64,000 bases of DNA from an uncultured Clostridia bacterium (GTDB lineage: Bacteria; Bacillota; Clostridia; Christensenellales; UBA3700). Positions 3,157 through 32,024 of this stretch are shown piece after piece. Below the pieces are notes generated by a model. The model worked only from the letters and a program-made list of their open reading frames with translations. It ran no database searches and had not been told where the DNA came from. Position 1 is the first letter of the stretch; the number at the start of each line of letters is the position of its first letter. The position numbers and the translations under genes are program-made. The stretch spans positions 860 to 64,859 of the forward strand of contig CAMOIC010000002.1 in NCBI GenBank assembly GCA_946615965.1, given 5' to 3'.

Positions 3157-3194
3157 ATACTTATATTACTATTATATATAAATAAAAGTCAAAA

Positions 3195-3213
3195 AGAATG
3201 CACTATGCACTCT
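3195..3213 (-). terminator. Possible intrinsic terminator at the end of the nrdR-lipoprotein transcript
   Basis: Minus strand AGAGUGCA-UAG-UGCAUUCU forms 8 bp including one G.U, followed by UUUUUG. The hairpin overlaps the stop codon of the lipoprotein gene. Confidence 0.4.
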
Positions 3214-4231
3214 TTCTAACTCTTACAATTGGCAAAAATCCTTTGTATGTTTCTGTATCCCTAAAATCTTCAGATACCAGCGCTGTTGATGAGATATTTC
3301 CTTGTGTTGTTACAAAATAAACAGAGGCAGCATGTTCATTTCCATATGGGGATCTTAACCACCATTCACCATACCTTCTCTCTACTTTGTCTTTTGTTCT
3401 AATTGCAAATAATACACCTTTAGCAATTGCATAATCTGAAACTTCAGTTAATCTTTTATTTGTTGCTATATCTCCACTATCTACAAAGCCATATGTTGAT
3501 CTTGTAGCTTCGTTAACACTTAGTGAATAAATCTTATCTTCTGTATTTTTTTGAACAGATGTAAATGCATTATTATTGTTGTATTTTGTTTTATTATCTA
3601 CAGTTGTTACAACAATATCCTTTACTTGATTTGTATCAAAGGCTTTTTTATAGAAAGTATTAGCAAATTTTCTTAATGTTGAATATTCATAAGAATTAGC
3701 ATATACCCATTTATCTCCGCCGTTATATTTAACGCCTTCATCATCTTTATAGAAATATCTTTCTGTAGAATCTCCTGCAATATTTGCAATGTTTTGGAAA
3801 TTAGTAATATCTAAAATCTTATTTGACATACAAACAAATGCATTGTCTTCTTTTGAATAGATGATATTCCATATAATATCTTCAACAACAAATGCGTATT
3901 CTTGACCTGCAATAACAGAACTACCATTTGAGAATGTAGCATCCTCCACACTAGGTGTTGCTGTAATTATTGCATATGTTTTTCCATTATATTTGTAATA
4001 ACCTGTTGATTCATCATATTCTCCAGTTTTGATATCACTAAGTTCTACATTCTTAGCGATTGTTTGTGGATATGAACCAAAAGATATTTGTTTTGAAGTA
4101 ACAAAAGTATAAGATAAAGAATCTTTCTCTTCTTGTTTTGTATTATCATCTTTCTTACATGCAAACAAACATGTTGAACAAATAATAGATAAAATTATTA
4201 CAACTGAAAATATTTTTATAAACTTTTTCAT
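3203..4231 (-). CDS. Putative lipoprotein, DUF6273-like
   Basis: Signal peptide plus lipobox: MKKFIKIFSVVIILSIICSTCLFA-CKKDD. Shows FGSYPQT and C-terminal YGEWWLRSP motifs that I recall from a family of gut-Firmicute extracellular proteins. The start overlaps the nrdR stop. Confidence 0.55.
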   Translation of the reverse strand: MKKFIKIFSVVIILSIICSTCLFACKKDDNTKQEEKDSLSYTFVTSKQISFGSYPQTIAKNVELSDIKTGEYDESTGYYKYNGKTYAIITATPSVEDATFSNGSSVIAGQEYAFVVEDIIWNIIYSKEDNAFVCMSNKILDITNFQNIANIAGDSTERYFYKDDEGVKYNGGDKWVYANSYEYSTLRKFANTFYKKAFDTNQVKDIVVTTVDNKTKYNNNNAFTSVQKNTEDKIYSLSVNEATRSTYGFVDSGDIATNKRLTEVSDYAIAKGVLFAIRTKDKVERRYGEWWLRSPYGNEHAASVYFVTTQGNISSTALVSEDFRDTETYKGFLPIVRVRKSA

Positions 4232-4689
4232 TATTTCTTCTCTTTTACTAAATCTTTGATTTCAGATAGCCAGCTGTTAATATCTTTAAATTCTCTATAT
4301 ACAGCAGCAAATCTAATATAAGCTACATCATCTAATTTCTTTAAGCCTTCCATAGCATATTCACCAATTTGAGATGATGTTACTTCTTGTTCTAAAGAAT
4401 TAGCAATTTTCTTTTCTATATCATCAACAAGTTTATCTATCTTTTCCATTGGAACAGGACGCTTAGCGCAAGCAGATAAAATACCTTGCTTTAATTTGTT
4501 TCTTGAGAATGGTTGTCTATCTCCATTCTTTTTAATTACAAGGATTGGAGCAATTTCAATAGTTTCATAAGTTGTAAAACGTCTGCCGCATTGCATGCAT
4601 TCACGTCTTCTTCTTATTGATGTTCCATCTTCATTTAATCTACTGTCTATAACTTTACTTTCTAGACATCCACAAAAGCTACATTTCAT
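4231..4689 (-). CDS. nrdR: Transcriptional repressor NrdR
   Basis: MKCSFCGCLESKVIDSRLNEDGTSIRRRRECMQCGRRFTTYE zinc ribbon followed by an ATP-cone. 152 aa. Confidence 0.92.
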   Translation of the reverse strand: MKCSFCGCLESKVIDSRLNEDGTSIRRRRECMQCGRRFTTYETIEIAPILVIKKNGDRQPFSRNKLKQGILSACAKRPVPMEKIDKLVDDIEKKIANSLEQEVTSSQIGEYAMEGLKKLDDVAYIRFAAVYREFKDINSWLSEIKDLVKEKK

Positions 4690-6891: not shown

Positions 6892-8328
6892 CTACTCCTT
6901 ACATTTAAACTCTTGCATTGGTTTTTTCTTGAATTCTATATCCATTAAACCAAGTTGAGTTTTAATTATTTTTCTCATTTCTACTGCAGGCTGTAAGCAA
7001 TATTTCTTAAATAATTCCTTATCTACCTTATCTACATTATCCCAGCATGGGAATAATAATTTAACGAATGCAGTTGTTATTCTCTTTACCGCTTTTGTAT
7101 CTCTTGTATCTGCATCATTTGGCACAACTACAAGTTCATCAACAATTGCTTTTTCTATTACATCTTCTCTAAGAGCATGCATTATTTCTGAGAAATATTC
7201 AGTATTCAATGCCCATCCATTTACTTTCATATTCTCATTCATTCTAGGTACATCCCATCCTTTAATAAATCCGTGGAATCTATCTATTAATGCAGAATCT
7301 TCAAATAACGATGGCAACTCTTCTAGCATGTTAACATTTGTGTCCATCTTTTCTTGTCTTATATTTCCAAGAACGATTACTCCGGCTTTTCCTGCACCTG
7401 ATTTTAGTCCGACATTAAACGTTCCTGATTCAAGATATCCCTTCATTGCACCACGCATTTCATCAATGTCTGGAAACTTAATTGTAGATATCTCATCAAG
7501 TGCTACGTAGTCATAATATGAAACAAGTCCTTCTTGATGCTTATTCATATCATAGAACATTTTTGCTCTTGTCATTACACCGCCAGATACAAGCCATCCT
7601 TTCTTACTAATTTGAGAAAAGATATAACTCTTTCCAGTTCCTTTAGGTGCTAGTTCCATAAGGTTCAATCTTTCTTCAACAAATGGAAGCAATCTTGTAA
7701 GCATTGTTAACTTTTCAAGTTCTGTTTTAAATCCAGCTGCATTGTAATCAATAGCACCTAAGATTACATCTATCCATTCATCAATAGTAAATTGCTCTCT
7801 TGCCTTCTTAAAGAATTCTAGATCTATCTTATATGGTCTAAAATCTTTAAACCCAACAAGAACAATCTTTCCTTCTTGTTTCTTACCTTTAGTTATATTT
7901 TGATATTCTAAATCTAGAATTCCCCAAAACTCGCCATCAGATACAAGGAGTTCTTTTTTATATTTTGTCCAAACACTTTGTGGTATATGTGTTTGTTGGT
8001 ATGTTATCCCAAAATCTGGAAGAGCGAATGTTACTTCAGATGTCTTAATATCTATATTTACTGAAAGCTTAGCTAAAAACCTTACTTTTTCGCCAGATAT
8101 TAATTTATCTAATATGGCATTCCACTCATCTTTACGAGGCATTACGTCTTTAATTTTTTCTAAAACAAAATTAACGTTAACATTTCCATCGGCATCTGCA
8201 TACTTTTTAATAAACCAGTCTCTTATAAAAGCTGGTAAATTAAGAGATGAAAATACACCCTGTAGTGATGACTTTTTAACTATCATCCCATCAAAGCTTT
8301 GTTTTAGCTTTAATTCCACATCGCTCAT
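6892..8328 (-). CDS. BrxL-like AAA+ protein (BREX Lon-like family N-terminal and ATPase regions, no Lon protease domain)
   Basis: 478 aa. Walker A LAPKGTGKSY, Walker B-like YVALDEIS. The blocks FTIDEWIDVILGAI, SALIDRFHGFIKGWDVP and the N-terminal FDGMIVKKSSL...LPAFIRDWF are collinear with BrxL as I remember it. The protein ends where the BrxL protease domain would begin. Confidence 0.65.
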   Translation of the reverse strand: MSDVELKLKQSFDGMIVKKSSLQGVFSSLNLPAFIRDWFIKKYADADGNVNVNFVLEKIKDVMPRKDEWNAILDKLISGEKVRFLAKLSVNIDIKTSEVTFALPDFGITYQQTHIPQSVWTKYKKELLVSDGEFWGILDLEYQNITKGKKQEGKIVLVGFKDFRPYKIDLEFFKKAREQFTIDEWIDVILGAIDYNAAGFKTELEKLTMLTRLLPFVEERLNLMELAPKGTGKSYIFSQISKKGWLVSGGVMTRAKMFYDMNKHQEGLVSYYDYVALDEISTIKFPDIDEMRGAMKGYLESGTFNVGLKSGAGKAGVIVLGNIRQEKMDTNVNMLEELPSLFEDSALIDRFHGFIKGWDVPRMNENMKVNGWALNTEYFSEIMHALREDVIEKAIVDELVVVPNDADTRDTKAVKRITTAFVKLLFPCWDNVDKVDKELFKKYCLQPAVEMRKIIKTQLGLMDIEFKKKPMQEFKCKE

Positions 8329-8340
8329 GTAGATTCTCCT

Positions 8341-9786
8341 TTATAGGCCTAAGTCGTCTTCTTCTAAGCCTTTATTAAATTTAATCTTTTTTCTAGCGAT
8401 TTCATTTTGTGATGAAATAATAACTTCGTACTCTCCTGGTTTTTCAATATTCAATGGTTCAGATACCCATGAATTGAATTTCTTAGAACATAGATAATTT
8501 GCCCCATTTACTTGCAAATATACTTTTTCTAGTTCCTTAGATACAGAAAACTCAACACTTGGCTTCTCCCCTGCCTTCATATTAATAACATCTTCAGCAA
8601 ATGTTACTTCTACAGTTTCATCTTCTTTTTCTTTCTTTACAGTTCCGCCAGTTCTTCCAGCATATTCTTCAAAAGCTTTTAAATCTTTTTGTTTTACTGT
8701 AGGTGGAACTTTAGATAATGCTTTAACAAAATCTTTCATAGTAATATCTGTTAAAACATCAGTCTTAATATAATTGTTTAGAGGATCTTCTTTTGCTCTA
8801 TCACAAACTTCTGCAATATCTGCACCAGAATAACCTTCTGTTACTTTAACAAGCTTCTTAATATCTACATCTTTTCCAAGAGGAACATTATTTAATTGTT
8901 TATTAAACATATATTCTCTTGCTGGAGCATCAGGCAAAGATACATAAATCTTTTCACTAAATCTTCCAGAACGAACAGCTGCACTATCTACATCCCAAGG
9001 TCTATTAGTAGCACCAAGTAATAATAGGTTATCTGTCTTTGATGCAAATCCATCGATTTGTTGTAAGAATTCATTTACACGCTTATCATTGTGCATATCT
9101 TGGCCACGTTGTCCAAATAAAGAATCCATTTCATCAATAAAAATGATAGCAAGCTTATCTTTTTTAGCAGCTTCAAATAATGAAGAAATATTCTTTTCAC
9201 TCTCACCTACATATTTAGATAAGATATCTGATCCTTTAATTGCATAGAATGTAGCACCAACTTCGCCAGCAATGGCTTTTGCTATTAAAGTCTTACCTGT
9301 TCCTGGAGGTCCATATAACAAGACACCACCACCCATTTTCTTACCATACTTGGCATATTTTTCTGGGTACTTAATAGGATTAATCATTCTAGTTAAGATT
9401 GTTTTCTTAACTTCTTCTAGTCCAGCAACATCAGAGAATTTGATATCTGGGATAGCAGAACCTTGCCAAATCTTGCCATTATCTTCATCTTGTTCTTGTT
9501 GTTGACCACCTTGAGAATTATCTCCAGTTCCTGGAACACGTCTAACAGCTGGACGTTTTCTATCTCCACATGCTTCTGCGTTTTCTTGATACATTTTAGC
9601 TTTTTTAATAAGCGATGCCTTTAATTGTTGTGAAGAATATTTACTTGTTTCTAATGCCTTTTGTGCAGCAAGCATATAATACTTCTTAGCAGCAGTATAG
9701 TTGCCAGCAGCCTGACATCTAATTGCATTATTGTAGTAAGTATCCATCATTTCTCTGTAGAAAGACACATCCTTAACTTCAGCCAT
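8341..9786 (-). CDS. Vps4-like AAA+ ATPase (MIT-like N-domain, linker, AAA core, extra C-terminal beta-rich domain)
   Basis: MIT-like three-helix N-terminus YYNNAIRCQAAGNYTAAKKYYMLAAQKALETSKY...KKAKMYQENAEAC. Walker A GPPGTGKT, pore loop KYVGESEK, Walker B IIFIDEMD, ATNRPWDVDSAAVRSGRF. About 100 aa of unrelated C-terminal sequence. Confidence 0.8.
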   Translation of the reverse strand: MAEVKDVSFYREMMDTYYNNAIRCQAAGNYTAAKKYYMLAAQKALETSKYSSQQLKASLIKKAKMYQENAEACGDRKRPAVRRVPGTGDNSQGGQQQEQDEDNGKIWQGSAIPDIKFSDVAGLEEVKKTILTRMINPIKYPEKYAKYGKKMGGGVLLYGPPGTGKTLIAKAIAGEVGATFYAIKGSDILSKYVGESEKNISSLFEAAKKDKLAIIFIDEMDSLFGQRGQDMHNDKRVNEFLQQIDGFASKTDNLLLLGATNRPWDVDSAAVRSGRFSEKIYVSLPDAPAREYMFNKQLNNVPLGKDVDIKKLVKVTEGYSGADIAEVCDRAKEDPLNNYIKTDVLTDITMKDFVKALSKVPPTVKQKDLKAFEEYAGRTGGTVKKEKEDETVEVTFAEDVINMKAGEKPSVEFSVSKELEKVYLQVNGANYLCSKKFNSWVSEPLNIEKPGEYEVIISSQNEIARKKIKFNKGLEEDDLGL

Positions 9787-9796
9787 TTATTACCCC

Positions 9797-10390
9797 TTAG
9801 TTGTTATTTGTTTCTTTAATCTTTTTGCTAATTTCATCTAATTGCTTATCAATATCATCATCACTAACTTCATCCATAGCTAGTTCTTGATCGATAAGAC
9901 TATTAATTTCGTCATCAGAAATGGCATTTGTATCACCTGTATGAGCATTGAACTCTCCTTCTGACATATCTAGATAAATATCCATTTGTTCAGTTTGAGT
10001 TTGAACACCTTCCATAGCGGCTTCAAATTGTTGTTGAACTTTAGCAAAGTCCTTAGAATTTGTTAACTTTGTCATTTCCTTAGATAAAAGACTTAAACCA
10101 CCTAAGAATTCATGAGTCATAACTGTCATATCTTTCATTTGAGAAGTGATTTCAAAGTTCAATAACATCTCTTGAGCTCTTTTTTGTTGAGCCATAGTCA
10201 TTTTTAAACCAGTAACAGCTAAATTATATTGGTTCATTAAACCAAGCTTTTTAGCACGCTTTGCTGCTGAGATATATACTTTCTTTTGATCTTCTAGTTT
10301 AGAAATTTGTTTATTCATTTGGTTAATAGTCTTTTTAACCAACATTTTCTTTTCTATTTCTTTCTCTTGTTTAGTTTTAAATAATCCCAT
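9797..10390 (-). CDS. ESCRT-III superfamily protein, Vps2/Vps24/CHMP3-like
   Basis: 197 aa. MGLFKTKQEKEIEKK N-terminus, then a basic helical hairpin (AAKRAKKLGLMNQYNLAVTGLKMTMAQQKRAQEM), then KDFAKVQQQFEAAMEGVQTQTEQMDIYLD, and an acidic C-terminus ending in an amphipathic DDDIDKQLDEISKKIKE helix. Confidence 0.65.
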   Translation of the reverse strand: MGLFKTKQEKEIEKKMLVKKTINQMNKQISKLEDQKKVYISAAKRAKKLGLMNQYNLAVTGLKMTMAQQKRAQEMLLNFEITSQMKDMTVMTHEFLGGLSLLSKEMTKLTNSKDFAKVQQQFEAAMEGVQTQTEQMDIYLDMSEGEFNAHTGDTNAISDDEINSLIDQELAMDEVSDDDIDKQLDEISKKIKETNNN

Positions 10391-11007
10391 TATTCGTCAG
10401 TCTCCTCAAATTCTTTTTCTATTAATCCTGCTTCACCGCTTTCTTCAACGGCAGCAATTGTTTCTTCTTGTTCTGCAGTATCTTGCTCTTCAAACATAGC
10501 AAGTAATTGATCATCATTCTTACCTGCACCGTAAATTGTTTCATTTAAATCATATTGCATTGCAACTTCATTAAATGTATCGTCAGATGTTGTTAATATA
10601 TCTTCTTCCTTAACTCTTAAATTCAATGCCTTATTTAAGTACTTAGCAAGTGCCTTTTGGTCACCTAATAACTTATTAATTGGAATTTTACCTGTATTTG
10701 CATAGAATTCCTTATCTTCCATAGCATCCTTTAACTTATTCATTAAGTTGATGTTATAGACAAGATACATACCTCTTTGTGCATCACGTTGTTTTTGAGC
10801 TTTTAGGTAATTAATCTTCTTTGCATATAAAAGTCTTATCTCTTGAGATTTCTCAGCTTTACCCTTCTTTAAAAGTTCTTCAATTTCAGCTGTCTTTTCT
10901 ACAATGCCATCTTCGATAGCTTCTTGTTCTTTCTCAAGTTTGATAATAGAATTTACAACTTCTTCTCTTTTTAATTTCTTAAATCTAAAATATGATAAGA
11001 ATCCCAC
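10390..11007 (-). CDS. ESCRT-III superfamily protein, Snf7/CHMP4-like
   Basis: 205 aa. MGFLSYFRFKK N-terminus, coiled-coil hairpin LLKKGKAEKSQEIRLLYAKKINYLKAQKQRDAQ, and a strongly acidic tail (EEQDTAEQEETIAAVEESGE...EFEETDE). The stop overlaps the start of the next gene. Confidence 0.55.
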   Translation of the reverse strand: MGFLSYFRFKKLKREEVVNSIIKLEKEQEAIEDGIVEKTAEIEELLKKGKAEKSQEIRLLYAKKINYLKAQKQRDAQRGMYLVYNINLMNKLKDAMEDKEFYANTGKIPINKLLGDQKALAKYLNKALNLRVKEEDILTTSDDTFNEVAMQYDLNETIYGAGKNDDQLLAMFEEQDTAEQEETIAAVEESGEAGLIEKEFEETDE

Positions 11008-11018
11008 AAATAGCCTCC

Positions 11019-11372
11019 TTATTCGTTCGCGCGTCTTTCAACAACTAATTGATTTAAATCTCTTAAATTGTGATTAAGCGCTAAATCACTTCTTAATTTT
11101 CCTCTAGACAAGATTAGCTTTAGAGAATCCAATTTATCTGATATCTCTTTATCTATTCTCTCTACTTCTTCTGAAACAACAGGATTTGAATATTTAATTT
11201 CGATATATAAATCCTTTAATTGTTGTTCAATAGAATGATTACTCTTTGCTAAAACAATTAGCATATTAATCTTTTCTGCATTTTTATCTAAAGTTTTCTT
11301 AACTTGCATAACTTTAGCAACATGTGCAGGAGAGATATCTATAATTTCTTTATCTTTAACAAATAATCCCAT
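11019..11372 (-). CDS. Small all-helical protein sharing the MGLF N-terminus (function unknown)
   Basis: 117 aa, MGLFVKDKEII..., heptad-like helical sequence. Start overlaps the stop of the SPFH gene (TAATG). No family recognised. Confidence 0.45.
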   Translation of the reverse strand: MGLFVKDKEIIDISPAHVAKVMQVKKTLDKNAEKINMLIVLAKSNHSIEQQLKDLYIEIKYSNPVVSEEVERIDKEISDKLDSLKLILSRGKLRSDLALNHNLRDLNQLVVERRANE

Positions 11373-12136
11373 TATTCTACCCTCGCTCCACAGTTATTAC
11401 AGAATTTACTTCCTGCGACAATTATATGGCCACATCTTGGACAAACATCTTGTTTTGTTCTTGCAGCTTTTGACTTATCCATATATCTATCTGAGATATT
11501 GACATTAGAAATTAAAAATGAAGAAATCTCTAATCCATATTCTCTATACAAAGCTTTATCTAAAGATTGTCTAATCTCATAAGACATAGCCATTTTATCT
11601 TCTGCGATTCTATCTAATGGCACTTCATTAACTGCCACATATTCAAGAATGCATGGTTCAATATATGATAAGATTTTACCCTTTAGTCTTTCTTTTAAAT
11701 CTTCTAAAGAAAATCTCTTATTAACACCAACAAGTTCTAAATAGAATTGTCTTGGATTCTTAACACGAAGTTCAATTTCTCCATTAGCACCCATTTTTGC
11801 AGGATTATCTGTGATTGGATCATGAATATCAAACAATGCAGGTGTTCCCCAAAGCACTTTAACTTTGGCTGTTTTTGATATATAGAAAAACTCAATTCTT
11901 GATGGGTCTTGCTTCTCTATTGAGAATGGAGAATTCTTATCTTGTAATTTATAAACGCCAGGTTTTATAGTTTCTAAAGCAATGCCATCTTTAAGAACAA
12001 TAGCAACATGAGTTTCGTCTATAATCACTTTTGAGTCCGAATTAATAGAAGAGATACTCTTTCTTATGAATAAATCATCATTAGAGATCTCACTTTTGTT
12101 TAAAAACACAACTTTTGAGTCTGTAGTTGTAGCCAA
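11372..12136 (-). CDS. SPFH/Band-7-like protein with C-terminal Zn-ribbon (YdjI / COG4260-like)
   Basis: 254 aa with a TTG start 7 nt after AGGAGG. Blocks THVAIVLKDGIA...PGVYKL, KVLWGTPALFDIHDP and GLEISSFLISNVNISD parallel B. subtilis YdjI as I recall it. C-terminal CPRCGH...CNNCG ribbon. Confidence 0.7.
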   Translation of the reverse strand: MATTTDSKVVFLNKSEISNDDLFIRKSISSINSDSKVIIDETHVAIVLKDGIALETIKPGVYKLQDKNSPFSIEKQDPSRIEFFYISKTAKVKVLWGTPALFDIHDPITDNPAKMGANGEIELRVKNPRQFYLELVGVNKRFSLEDLKERLKGKILSYIEPCILEYVAVNEVPLDRIAEDKMAMSYEIRQSLDKALYREYGLEISSFLISNVNISDRYMDKSKAARTKQDVCPRCGHIIVAGSKFCNNCGARVE

Positions 12137-12193
12137 TTTTCCTCCTACATCTTGTGGTTTAAAAACAAATCTACCACAATATGTAACAATAAT

Positions 12194-12222
12194 ATTTTAT
12201 ATTAAATATTTAAGTCAGTCAA
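12194..12222 (-). promoter_or_regulatory. Sigma-A-type promoter of the seven-gene operon
   Basis: Minus strand TTGACT (12222-12217), 17 nt, TAAAAT (12199-12194), about 50 nt upstream of the TTG start. The -35 lies inside the perfect palindrome GTCAATATTGAC (12218-12229). Confidence 0.5.
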
Positions 12223-12285
12223 TATTGACCTATTCTAAGGGATTTATATCAAATTTAACTAAACAATTTCTTAAAAAATTTCATT

Positions 12286-12321
12286 AAAAAAGGGCGAGAA
12301 ACTACTAAGAGTCGCTCACCC
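12286..12321 (-). terminator. Intrinsic terminator downstream of ftsZ
   Basis: Minus strand GGGUGAG-(16 nt)-CUCGCCC followed by UUUUUU, about 40 nt after the ftsZ stop. Confidence 0.6.
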
Positions 12322-12360
12322 TCTTTTGGGTATATATGTTGTTGTAAACTTTTTAGTCTA

Positions 12361-30095: not shown

Positions 30096-31970
30096 TTATC
30101 TTTTCAAGTGTTCTTGATATCGATCTAAATCTGAACACAGCAATTTAATGATATAATTTTTAGTTTTTGATTCTGTTTTAATACCCTCTAATTTCTTTTT
30201 TAAATCTATTAAATACATCTGCTCGGAACCAAAAAAATCATAAGAATTACCTATACCGTATATCCTTAACAATAAACTCCTAAACATATTTAATTCATCA
30301 TTGTCTGCATCTTTTATATAATTACAAACTTTATCTATCTCATATTTTGAAATAAACTCCTTTCTTTCAAAAGCAGTTGAAATAATCTTTTCAATTTCAG
30401 ATTCTTGCATATTTTTCAAAGAAATAAGCATTTTCCCTTCTGATAAATCATATAGTTTTTCATTATGTGCAGTGATATTATTTTTAATTCTATCAATACT
30501 TTCTAGGAAAGGTTTTTCATTTTGAACTACACTATAATCTGGCCATAATAATTCGATTTCTTTATTGCTTGCCTTTATGTTTTTTATAAGAATATCTTCA
30601 AATTCTCGAATTCCAATAATTTCTTCAAATTTATATGCTTTCACATAGGTATAATAGTAGTTAATTGCTAATAGAGAATACTCTAATTCCATCTTATTCT
30701 TAGAGACTGCATCAATCATGCATTTTATATTAGTAGATATTTCTTCATCACTTAATTCAACCCAGGAACCTCTTAAAACCAATAAATACATAGGAATCTC
30801 TTCTTGAGGCATAAAATAAAATGACTCATCAAGTTCCTCAATTTCTTTTTGTATTTTATCACTTATTTTTTGATAATTAACAAACTCCTTAATACTTGGT
30901 AATGTAGTCACATTAAAATCAATATTATTTACAACAGTTTTAGGATTTCGATATTTTATAGTATCTAATAAAACATTTATAATTAACGACTCCTTAATTT
31001 TAACGTCATTATTAATCTTTGAGAAATCTACATATTCATACAGTTTATTCAAGTTATCAAGAAAGGTTATAAGGGTTCTAAGATTATTACATGAGCAATT
31101 ATAAATACATTTTATAATATTCTCTTTATTATTTATTACATCCTCATATATATTTTCATATCTAGACATTTTTGCTAACTTGTCAAAAAAAACATTCACA
31201 TCAAATCTAAATACTACGGTGTTGTTAATAGTTTTTTCCTTAATAATGTCATAATCTCTAATGTCTCTTATTGACTCCATCATACTATTTAACGAATCTT
31301 TTGAATCAGGGTTTTTACTTTGAGTTGTTTTCAGCATAATAGACGACACCAGCATTATATCCTTATTATTATCATGGTCTATCGAATCTATTAATTCTTT
31401 TTCATCACCAATAACAACAACCCTATAACGAGGTTCTTCTGTAAACTCATTCAAATAACCAAACAATTCTTTGTAATCAATGCGACATCTCTCTATGTCA
31501 TCAAAAAACATAACAACTTTTTTAGTAGAATTAATAATTAAATCCGCAACCCAAGTAAACTCTATATTATCAATTCCGCTTATATCTTTCCCTTTAAATG
31601 CTGCAACAATTTTTCCAACAGATTTACCAAAATTAGCAATTTTAGAATCTGAAAACCAAGTAACAAACGAACAAACCTTTTTTGAAATACTATTCTTTAT
31701 ATCATCTATTTTTGAGATTCCATTTAAAGAAACATATATATATAATATATCCTTCTCGTTCTGAGCATTCTTATTCTTAATGTAGTTATTTATATAGTAT
31801 GATTTACCAGATCCCCAGGGACCATTTATAAACAGTGCTCCATATGGATTATCATTTTCTAAATAATAGTCTAGCGCTTTCGTTAAAGTATTATGATTCT
31901 TTAGTATCTCCGAATCCACCCTTCCAGAAAGCACATCATTATCAATATTGCTGTTTTTTTTATAAGCCAT
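30096..31970 (-). CDS. KAP-family P-loop NTPase (soluble form)
   Basis: Walker A INGPWGSGKSYY and Walker B/KAP signature VVMFFDDIERC. Long helical C-terminal region. I prefer the start at 31970 (GGAGG RBS) over 31988. Confidence 0.7.
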   Translation of the reverse strand: MAYKKNSNIDNDVLSGRVDSEILKNHNTLTKALDYYLENDNPYGALFINGPWGSGKSYYINNYIKNKNAQNEKDILYIYVSLNGISKIDDIKNSISKKVCSFVTWFSDSKIANFGKSVGKIVAAFKGKDISGIDNIEFTWVADLIINSTKKVVMFFDDIERCRIDYKELFGYLNEFTEEPRYRVVVIGDEKELIDSIDHDNNKDIMLVSSIMLKTTQSKNPDSKDSLNSMMESIRDIRDYDIIKEKTINNTVVFRFDVNVFFDKLAKMSRYENIYEDVINNKENIIKCIYNCSCNNLRTLITFLDNLNKLYEYVDFSKINNDVKIKESLIINVLLDTIKYRNPKTVVNNIDFNVTTLPSIKEFVNYQKISDKIQKEIEELDESFYFMPQEEIPMYLLVLRGSWVELSDEEISTNIKCMIDAVSKNKMELEYSLLAINYYYTYVKAYKFEEIIGIREFEDILIKNIKASNKEIELLWPDYSVVQNEKPFLESIDRIKNNITAHNEKLYDLSEGKMLISLKNMQESEIEKIISTAFERKEFISKYEIDKVCNYIKDADNDELNMFRSLLLRIYGIGNSYDFFGSEQMYLIDLKKKLEGIKTESKTKNYIIKLLCSDLDRYQEHLKR

Positions 31971-31987
31971 AATATATAACCTCCACA

Positions 31988-32024
31988 TAAAAAATGCTGT
32001 CTTATACTTAGATAAAACAGCATT
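31988..32024 (-). terminator. Intrinsic terminator after tRNA-Gln, directly upstream of the KAP gene
   Basis: Minus strand AAUGCUGU-(16 nt)-ACAGCAUU followed by UUUUUAU. It ends about 18 nt before the KAP start codon. Confidence 0.55.

Follow-up and report, generated by a model that had tools for sequence, protein, structure and literature searches.

A short BrxL protein that follows a Vps4-like ATPase in an ESCRT-III-like cassette of Clostridia, with a DUF7862-like domain as its possible link

The gene described here lies at positions 6892-8328 of a 64,000-nucleotide stretch of DNA from an uncultured Clostridia bacterium (Christensenellales, UBA3700; GenBank assembly GCA_946615965.1, contig CAMOIC010000002.1, positions 860 to 64,859), which we refer to as the window. 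It encodes a short form of BrxL, a protein of the bacteriophage exclusion (BREX) systems, and belongs to a run of nine minus-strand genes, for an SPFH protein with zinc ribbon, the proteins p117, p205 and p197, a Vps4-like AAA ATPase, BrxL, a TIR protein, NrdR and a DUF6273 lipoprotein (Table 1). [quoted passage not shown] The central observation is that the ATPase carries an extra C-terminal domain (CTD), related to the end of the BREX protein PglZ, and that this domain and BrxL are present or absent together.

Table 1. Genes and sequence features of the BrxL cassette (positions within the window)
Feature	Position	Strand	Description
Terminator-like hairpin	3182..3226	minus	sole minus-strand one in the region; after the DUF6273 gene
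DUF6273 lipoprotein gene	3203-4231	minus	1-bp overlap with nrdR
nrdR (ribonucleotide-reductase repressor)	4231-4689	minus	after the TIR gene, 3-bp gap
TIR protein, 729 aa	4693..6882	minus	N-terminal CxxC..CxxC zinc ribbon, TPR, TIR, helical repeats, polybasic-aromatic tail KKKKKFWLWS
Short BrxL, 478 aa	6892..8328	minus	BrxL N-terminal DNA-binding region and MCM-like AAA+ ATPase, without Lon-like domain
Extra CTD of the Vps4-like ATPase, residues 385-481	8344..8634	minus	divergent DUF7862, beta-rich; proposed BrxL-coupling adaptor
Vps4/CdvC-like AAA ATPase, 481 aa	8341..9786	minus	MIT-like N-terminal three-helix region, classical AAA, Vps4_C oligomerisation domain, extra CTD
p197, predicted ESCRT-III (Snf7/CHMP/CdvB-type) subunit	9797..10390	minus	N-terminal MGLFK motif, alpha1-alpha2 hairpin, acidic linker, MIM1-like helix
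p205, helical-hairpin protein	10390..11007	minus	conserved N-terminal MG[FL]L/MWPFK motif, DDQLLAMFE motif
p117, small helical protein	11019..11372	minus	conserved cassette member, orthologues in 21 loci
SPFH/Band-7 protein with C-terminal zinc ribbon	11372..12136	minus	first cassette gene; Pfam Band_7_1 1.6e-19, Zn_Ribbon_1 3e-7
Best sigma-70-like promoter match	12194..12222	minus	TTGACT-17-TAAAAT, 10/12, consensus match only, in the ftsZ-SPFH gap

A single open reading frame (ORF) runs from ATG to stop at exactly 6892..8328, and the identical protein is found on 9 independent public contigs with its neighbours unchanged. In Pfam, residues 11-142 match BrxL_N (E 4e-28) and residues 156-469 match BrxL_ATPase (E 1e-113); the NCBIfam short-BrxL model TIGR02688 (449 aa) is matched at positions 1-448 with 434 bits, the cutoff being 329, and the PADLOC short-BrxL model PDLC02505 gives a full-length match of 668 bits. 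The best family is thus that of the BrxL models and not an unrelated AAA+ family. The long-BrxL model TIGR02653, on the other hand, is covered just at positions 3-459 of 675 and scores 249 bits, below its cutoff of 628. In a search of the PDB with the window protein, the alignment to the 679-aa Acinetobacter BrxL 8EMC spans residues 10-456 (E 2e-52), so that the window protein ends at about residue 456-468 of that chain, before the Lon-like domain; it has neither a Lon-like nor an HKD C-terminal domain. These results uphold the predicted collinearity with the N-terminal and ATPase domains of BrxL as well as the predicted stop before the Lon-like domain, and all five peptides quoted in the original prediction occur in the translation. 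The family of about 470 aa to which it referred is TIGR02688, of which the window protein is a bona fide member; other members are often named 'ATP-dependent Lon protease' by their sources, and a literature search for TIGR02688 found nothing. That BrxL is encoded at 6892-8328 is confirmed far beyond chance.

The ATPase motifs are in place, with Walker A at residues 227-234, the Walker B residues D278/E279 within 275-281, sensor-1 N322, and R350. We therefore describe the protein as a catalytically intact short BrxL, predicted to form an AAA+ ring that encircles DNA. In the Type-1 BREX BrxL of Acinetobacter (PDB 8EMC/8EMH), whose N-terminal and ATPase domains are homologous, these two domains build a hexameric or heptameric ring around double-stranded DNA (dsDNA) with DNA-dependent ATPase activity (PMC10164562). 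The ATPase activity is needed for restriction, and the Lon-like domain merely dimerises the rings tail-to-tail; ATP-dependent assembly of the ring on dsDNA is known from this protein alone (PMC10164562). Because the window protein does not have this ring-dimerising domain, it would be expected to assemble as one ring whose 'tail' face is left free.

The neighbourhoods of related BrxL genes are of two kinds. BrxLs that are at least 62% identical lie directly after the Vps4-like gene in a cassette of SPFH, p117, p205, p197 and Vps4-like genes, at unrelated chromosomal positions in Christensenellales and other Clostridia, so that homologues do co-occur with the genes that flank the window BrxL. 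Those with 49-59% identity lie in canonical Type-4 BREX loci of the order BrxP-BrxC-PglZ-BrxL, as confirmed by PADLOC. In a neighbour-joining (NJ) tree of 134 short BrxLs there are two clades, with each already-known context on the expected side, and when four members of unknown context were looked up, all were as predicted (three of them belonging to the cassette clade and one to the BREX clade). All 11 sampled BrxLs of the cassette clade, within which identity is 57-100%, stand beside a Vps4-like gene, and all 8 sampled BrxLs of the sister clade lie in Type-4 BREX. K229/K233/S234, D278/E279, N322 and R350 are invariant in the 134 proteins, 95 invariant positions including all ATPase motifs are common to both clades, and the clades can be told apart at only 6 positions. 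The place of brxL after the Vps4-like gene is fixed, with gaps of 2-17 bp or small overlaps in many lineages; sometimes a trypsin-like gene separates the two. The best explanation is that the cassette BrxLs are a distinct clade that would no longer work in BREX. As for the earlier statement that proteins of this type occur sporadically in defence contexts, they do form a defence family, but one that is not merely sporadic, being the BrxL of Type-4 BREX.

A single-protein scan of species-representative genomes gave only 10 loci. A larger sample was obtained from the side of the partners: 44 metagenomic loci were fetched with a p197 profile, the cassette proteins were mapped and the ORFs clustered. 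The core of SPFH, p117, p205, p197 and Vps4-like genes is near-universal in these loci (the SPFH-zinc-ribbon gene was found in 32), and BrxL occurs in about one third of the sampled lineages with an ESCRT-like cassette. TIR homologues, present in 37 loci, frequently come as a pair of paralogues or as giant proteins of about 1270 aa, and their positions vary; a trypsin-like protease gene recurs in 13. The number of TIR genes ranges from 0 to 2, and trypsin and BrxL may each be present or absent. BrxL is a facultative part of a larger TIR/ESCRT-III/Vps4/SPFH system, to which TIR belongs as a member without being fixed beside BrxL. Of the partners, the Vps4-like and ESCRT-III-like ones are near-universal, and the TIR gene varies in position and copy number.

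Vps4-like proteins in these loci have two forms, one of about 375 aa and one of about 480-520 aa with the extra CTD, which ends in a conserved tail, F-x-K-G-[LMF]-x-E-x-D-[LMF]-[GD]-[LI]. The window CTD matches Pfam DUF7862 with E 1.1e-3 (model 1-80 of 85), as do 4 of 14 orthologous CTDs at E<=0.01 (best E 5.7e-6). A hidden Markov model (HMM) of the CTD matches the extreme C-terminus of a Type-4 BREX PglZ (residues 663-754 of 757, E 9e-10) and of a second BREX-4 PglZ (residues 656-732 of 753, E 3e-6), and PglZ's C-terminal domain is DUF7862 by Pfam (E 1e-25 in locus L012). At the level of profile comparison, this shows the CTD of the Vps4-like protein to be homologous to the DUF7862 of Type-4 BREX PglZ. 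In both systems, the gene immediately 5' of brxL encodes a protein that ends in DUF7862; in Type-4 BREX this is true for a large subgroup. A literature search for DUF7862-7864 found nothing.

The occurrence of the CTD mirrors that of BrxL. Of the loci with at least 3 kb of downstream sequence, 12 have both and 19 lack both, with no discordant case; for distinct lineages (<90% identity) the corresponding numbers are 11 and 19. In the tree of Vps4-like proteins, the form with CTD and BrxL is found across basal branches and again nested inside the clade that has neither, which implies at least two joint changes. Distances between BrxLs and between Vps4-like proteins are correlated (r = 0.78). The invariant partner of BrxL is the Vps4-like ATPase, via its DUF7862-like domain, whereas the TIR gene shifts in position and copy number. 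In locus L013 the CTD is fused not to Vps4 but, via a proline-rich linker, to a p205-like protein, and BrxL is retained; no Vps4-like ATPase was detected in this 21-kb locus. The variant operon (L013:2410-11434) encodes a TIR-like protein of 990 aa, SPFH, a small protein, the p205-like::CTD fusion, a trypsin-like protease, an HTH protein and BrxL.

The ATPase itself is matched by Pfam AAA (E 6.8e-42) and Vps4_C (E 3.7e-8, 33.7 bits versus a cutoff of 21.3), and by PDB Vps4 5uie with E 4e-60. Its residues 10-376 align with positions 7-365 of the 370-residue NCBIfam CdvC model at 208 bits, below the equivalog cutoff. PADLOC also proposed IetA or TRIP13 for this protein; we rejected both, as the matches are limited to the generic AAA core and the partners IetS and CD-NTase are absent.

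For p197, the case rests on fold and family. An alignment-based AlphaFold2 (AF2) model (pLDDT, the predicted local distance difference test score, 63) has a long alpha1-alpha2 hairpin and shorter helices. A Foldseek search of the PDB with this model returned ESCRT-III proteins as all of the top 13 matches (E 4.5e-3 to 0.1), among them CHMP2A/3, CHMP1B, Asgard ESCRT-IIIB and Sulfolobus CdvB; Vipp1/PspA structures came below CHMP/CdvB, with low probability, and the PspA Pfam domain has no match in the p197 family. The N-terminus is hydrophobic-basic, and the C-terminal helix (DDDIDKQLDEISKKI) is MIM1-like: the tail D-x-I-D-K-E-L-E-E-L-K-K-K-I, kept in all lineages, fits the MIM1 consensus by inspection. 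This consensus is the motif bound by the MIT domains of Vps4. An exhaustive search with the p197 profile reached 489 representative clusters; Pfam Snf7 is matched by 10 of 52 scanned representatives of the family (best E 1.4e-9), and the p197 orthologue in the BrxL locus L068 has a precomputed Snf7 match. The p117, p205 and p197 of the window themselves have no significant Pfam, NCBIfam or PADLOC match, and the p197 profile gave only spurious low-complexity matches to PDB sequences. Judged by its modelled fold, p197 is a Snf7/CHMP-type ESCRT-III subunit. The AF2 model of p205, which is conserved throughout the cassette loci, has a hairpin (14-51/55-97) and two long helices in a topology that resembles p197. 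For p117 there is neither a Pfam match nor, by hhalign, any similarity to p197 or p205.

In some representatives of the p197 family, a p197-type domain of about 190 aa is found at the N-terminus of a RuvB-like ATPase, with or without a C-terminal NERD nuclease; in others it is fused to FtsK-alpha and FtsK/SpoIIIE motor domains (P0282, P0342, P0285, P0301, P0316, P0288, P0306, P0289 and P0291 for the ESCRT-III::DNA-motor fusions together). We found no published description of such fusions. They support, as far as domain architecture goes, a broader theme in which ESCRT-III would be joined to DNA motors at the membrane.

Among the closest known systems are the archaeal ESCRT-III/Vps4 systems (Cdv, Meth_adaptin), which likewise have a Snf7-type subunit with MIM1-like tail beside an ATPase with MIT-like, AAA and Vps4_C regions, and an SPFH-zinc-ribbon partner. 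Archaeal Meth_adaptin ESCRT loci encode an SPFH, coiled-coil and zinc-ribbon protein (PMC10936438). The accessories differ, being TIR, trypsin-like protease and BrxL in the cassette and CdvA/ESCRT-I/II or kinase/PP2C in archaea. A plasmid of Thermococcus peptonophilus (NZ_CP014751.1; L072, 3017-8558) carries homologues of p205 (E 5e-5), the Vps4-like ATPase (E 6e-65) and p197 (E 4.5e-19), and because of this the comparison supports an archaeal-type origin of the cassette. Beside the Vps4-like and p197 genes, the plasmid module has two MG[IL]L-initiated coiled-coil proteins, one of them the p205 profile match, and a Ser/Thr kinase and PP2C phosphatase where the Clostridia cassette has TIR/BrxL. 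In bacteria, PspA/Vipp1 and SPFH systems such as ydjFGHI of B. subtilis also combine, in one operon, a polymer of the ESCRT-III superfamily with a Band-7/SPFH-zinc-ribbon protein. However, p197 is closer to CHMP/CdvB/Snf7, and the cassette has a Vps4-type ATPase, which PspA systems lack. The most fitting description of the locus is a bacterial ESCRT-III/Vps4 cassette of archaeal type that captured a BrxL module.

The BrxL of Type-4 (phosphorothioation-based) BREX resembles that of the window in consisting of BrxL_N and the MCM-like AAA+ ATPase with no C-terminal domain. The cassette loci differ in having the Vps4-like ATPase upstream of BrxL, and BrxP, BrxC and PglZ were found neither in the 64-kb window nor in the cassette loci by tblastn with BREX-4 queries. 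PADLOC scans of the BrxL neighbours and large ORFs likewise gave no BREX partner in the window, and searches with Pfam, PADLOC and tblastn found no modification enzyme, be it the methyltransferase PglX or the PAPS reductase BrxP. PglZ and BrxC/PglY are the two universal BREX genes. With PglZ, BrxC and a modification enzyme all missing, the system fails the defining features of BREX, in agreement with the original prediction. We also rejected the idea of a degenerate BREX locus, PglZ, BrxC and BrxP being absent in all 11+ cassette loci. In PADLOC-DB v2 the gene set fits no described defence system; the sole specific match is BrxL, and the SPFH, p117, p205, p197 and TIR proteins are without any match. 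The placement of a BrxL between a Vps4-like ATPase and a TIR protein had been called unreported, and in an incomplete literature collection we found no paper that reports it, or any that places BrxL, TIR or DUF7862 in an ESCRT context. There is a substantial chance that the whole system is something new.

The TIR protein of the window is matched by Pfam TIR_2 (E 1.5e-9, 38.8 bits against a cutoff of 28), and its catalytic-glutamate motif, W239-x3-E243, is conserved in most TIR homologues, whose tails are polybasic-aromatic or transmembrane. These proteins are probable NADases, some of them membrane-anchored, and together with the trypsin-like proteases they look like effectors. They share the catalytic-glutamate motif with ThsB of Thoeris and other TIR effectors. 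In contrast to Thoeris, there is no ThsA or other known partner, PADLOC models do not match the cassette TIR, and its architecture of zinc ribbon, TPR, TIR and repeats with a predicted membrane-binding tail is unlike that of Thoeris-type TIRs.

Other genes accompany the cassette in particular lineages. Paired large ABC_tran and FtsX (MacB-like) proteins are encoded just downstream of the cassette or of a large TIR gene in L007 (14997-19594) and in about 20 other loci; the window has no such pair beside the operon. In the Christensenellales loci L008 (1-4484) and L017, a large ATPase of the FtsK/SpoIIIE family, several proteins of about 90 aa and LRR proteins precede the cassette, an arrangement that resembles type VII secretion or toxin loci. 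In L070 (6520-10013), a pair of large serine recombinases is encoded some 2.7 kb downstream of BrxL, with a 655-aa protein between, a hint that a mobile element adjoins the cassette in at least this locus. Elsewhere in the window, the minus strand encodes a protein of 630 aa (30096-31988) to which the PADLOC candidate-system models PDC-S49 match with E 2e-43; its size and the AAA-type nature of the match make an FtsH-like housekeeping protease, and not a defence protein, the probable identity.

The nine genes are tightly packed, with intergenic distances of -1 to 12 bp from SPFH to DUF6273. They are preceded by ftsA-ftsZ, and a gap of 224 bp (12137-12360) separates ftsZ from the SPFH gene. As the terminator-like hairpin comes only after the DUF6273 gene, nrdR and DUF6273 appear to be co-transcribed with the cassette. 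The order TIR-NrdR-DUF6273 is also found in L007 and L015. In L007, a 79%-identical relative, the interval from ftsZ to the cassette contains spoIIGA, sigE, sigG and a gene for a PRC-barrel protein (L007:3360-5900). Since the window has just the 224-bp gap at this site, the comparison suggests that its organism has lost sporulation genes there.

Together, our data suggest a model in which the cassette BrxL has been re-wired, along with DUF7862, from PglZ to Vps4, tying the DNA-encircling ring to an ESCRT machine at the membrane within a conflict system; we give this model a probability of about one half. In BREX-4, brxZ (pglZ) and brxL are dispensable for phosphorothioation (PMC12914056), and for this reason they can be regarded as the restriction half of the system. 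A module of DUF7862 and BrxL would have moved from this PglZ-BrxL half onto Vps4. DUF7862 and its conserved acidic-hydrophobic C-terminal peptide may dock the BrxL ring, so that engagement of DNA by BrxL would be physically coupled to the Vps4-driven remodelling of Snf7-type ESCRT-III polymers at the membrane, where SPFH might help to organise these polymers. TIR proteins and trypsin-like proteases would act as effectors. We consider both orders of signalling, from DNA to the membrane and from membrane damage to DNA. Such a machine would most likely be a conflict (anti-phage or anti-mobile-DNA) system acting where foreign DNA meets the membrane, a function that we favour in view of the presence of TIR, NERD and BrxL, the fast turnover of accessory genes and the carriage on an archaeal plasmid.

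Several observations speak against this model. In L034 there is a CTD with degenerate tail and no BrxL within the 2 kb of available flank. In the BREX-4 loci L018-L022 (Selenomonadales and Ruminococcus metagenome-assembled genomes), BrxL directly follows a PglZ of 685-775 aa that has no detectable DUF7862, from which it appears that DUF7862 is not universally required for BrxL function within BREX-4. A 2026 BREX survey sees the C-terminal beta-sandwich of PglZ as a fast-evolving module for recognition of invaders (PMC12839542) and not as a docking site for BrxL. On the ESCRT side, the MIT assignment for the N-terminal 105 aa of the Vps4-like protein is weak, VPS4B MIT domains being the only matches among natural PDB proteins (E 0.4-0.8). 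The reading of p205 as a second, divergent ESCRT-III paralogue is possible but similarly weak: with a broader profile, hhalign of p205 with the p197 family is collinear at E 7.8e-4 and 25% probability, with locus-derived alignments the result is not significant, and the best Foldseek match has E 0.49. The trees are NJ trees that carry no bootstrap values, some of the loci are related to one another, and the confidence of the structural models is moderate. Viral contigs and a phage collection held no homologues of the BrxL cassette or of p197. Finally, the flanks are mostly housekeeping genes (ftsZ, nrdR, ATP synthase, recA, scpAB, arg genes) and not classical defence islands.

The last point leads to a different view, in which ESCRT-III, Vps4 and SPFH form a housekeeping machine for membrane scission or repair, as in division, sporulation-type fission or upkeep of the envelope, and BrxL clears or translocates chromosomal DNA at a closing membrane with no part in immunity. 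SpoIIIE and FtsK, which perform DNA clearing and translocation at a closing membrane, provide the analogy, and ESCRT-III::FtsK fusions do exist. The cassette stands straight after ftsA-ftsZ, in L007 after spoIIGA-sigE-sigG as well, it is apparently co-transcribed with nrdR in the window lineage, and its proteins occur commonly in gut species that are abundant (254-419 contigs for single p205 clusters). However, the genomic site differs among lineages and the gene content is highly variable. TIR proteins with catalytic glutamate, a NERD nuclease fusion and BrxL are hallmarks of conflict systems, the archaeal relative is on a plasmid, and the presence of FtsZ and FtsA means that division is independent of the cassette. 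We regard a housekeeping role as rather unlikely but still plausible.

Alternatively, the CTD could be an independent sensor of foreign molecules, a DUF7862/Ig-like beta-sandwich that came along with brxL only through adjacency on the donor DNA; BrxL and Vps4 would then act in one pathway without touching each other. This would agree with the published view of the PglZ beta-sandwich, with the divergence of the domain (few CTDs reach DUF7862 at the threshold given above) and with the BREX-4 PglZ proteins that have no DUF7862 despite a BrxL. It fits poorly with a joint presence and absence that is perfect over about 30 lineages and involves at least two joint changes, with the move of the CTD to another cassette protein in L013, where BrxL was kept, and with a conserved acidic-hydrophobic peptide at the extreme C-terminus that has the look of a docking motif; we hold a pure sensor to be quite unlikely. 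That brxL is only a passenger, a remnant or stand-alone defence gene that was inserted beside the operon and functions or decays independently, is very improbable: BrxL is missing from most cassette lineages and BREX components are mobile and modular, but the cassette BrxLs form a dedicated clade with all catalytic residues invariant, keep their position behind Vps4, and co-evolve with Vps4 and co-vary with its CTD.

In its boldest form, the model of a BrxL re-wired to Vps4 would make the cassette the first bacterial machine of Vps4 and Snf7-type ESCRT-III, acquired from archaea, that couples dsDNA ring motors to membrane scission, BrxL via DUF7862 and FtsK/RuvB by fusion. We consider this extension rather doubtful. 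If true, a cell could capture DNA at its membrane and there either pinch it off or stop it at the site of entry, which would amount to a membrane-topological immunity, or ESCRT could drive DNA into vesicles, as happens in Sulfolobus; a contact between DUF7862 and BrxL would then show how BREX recruits BrxL. The finding that BrxL travels with the C-terminal domain of PglZ has value for the role and the interaction partners of BrxL in BREX, since it nominates a specific interface between the DUF7862 tail and the BrxL ring. The cassette is widespread in Clostridia of gut and rumen and would provide a bacterial model for ESCRT biology. That ESCRT-III is repeatedly joined to TIR and to dsDNA motors (BrxL, FtsK, and RuvB alone or together with NERD) is a sign of a so far undescribed kind of membrane-coupled system for DNA handling or immunity.

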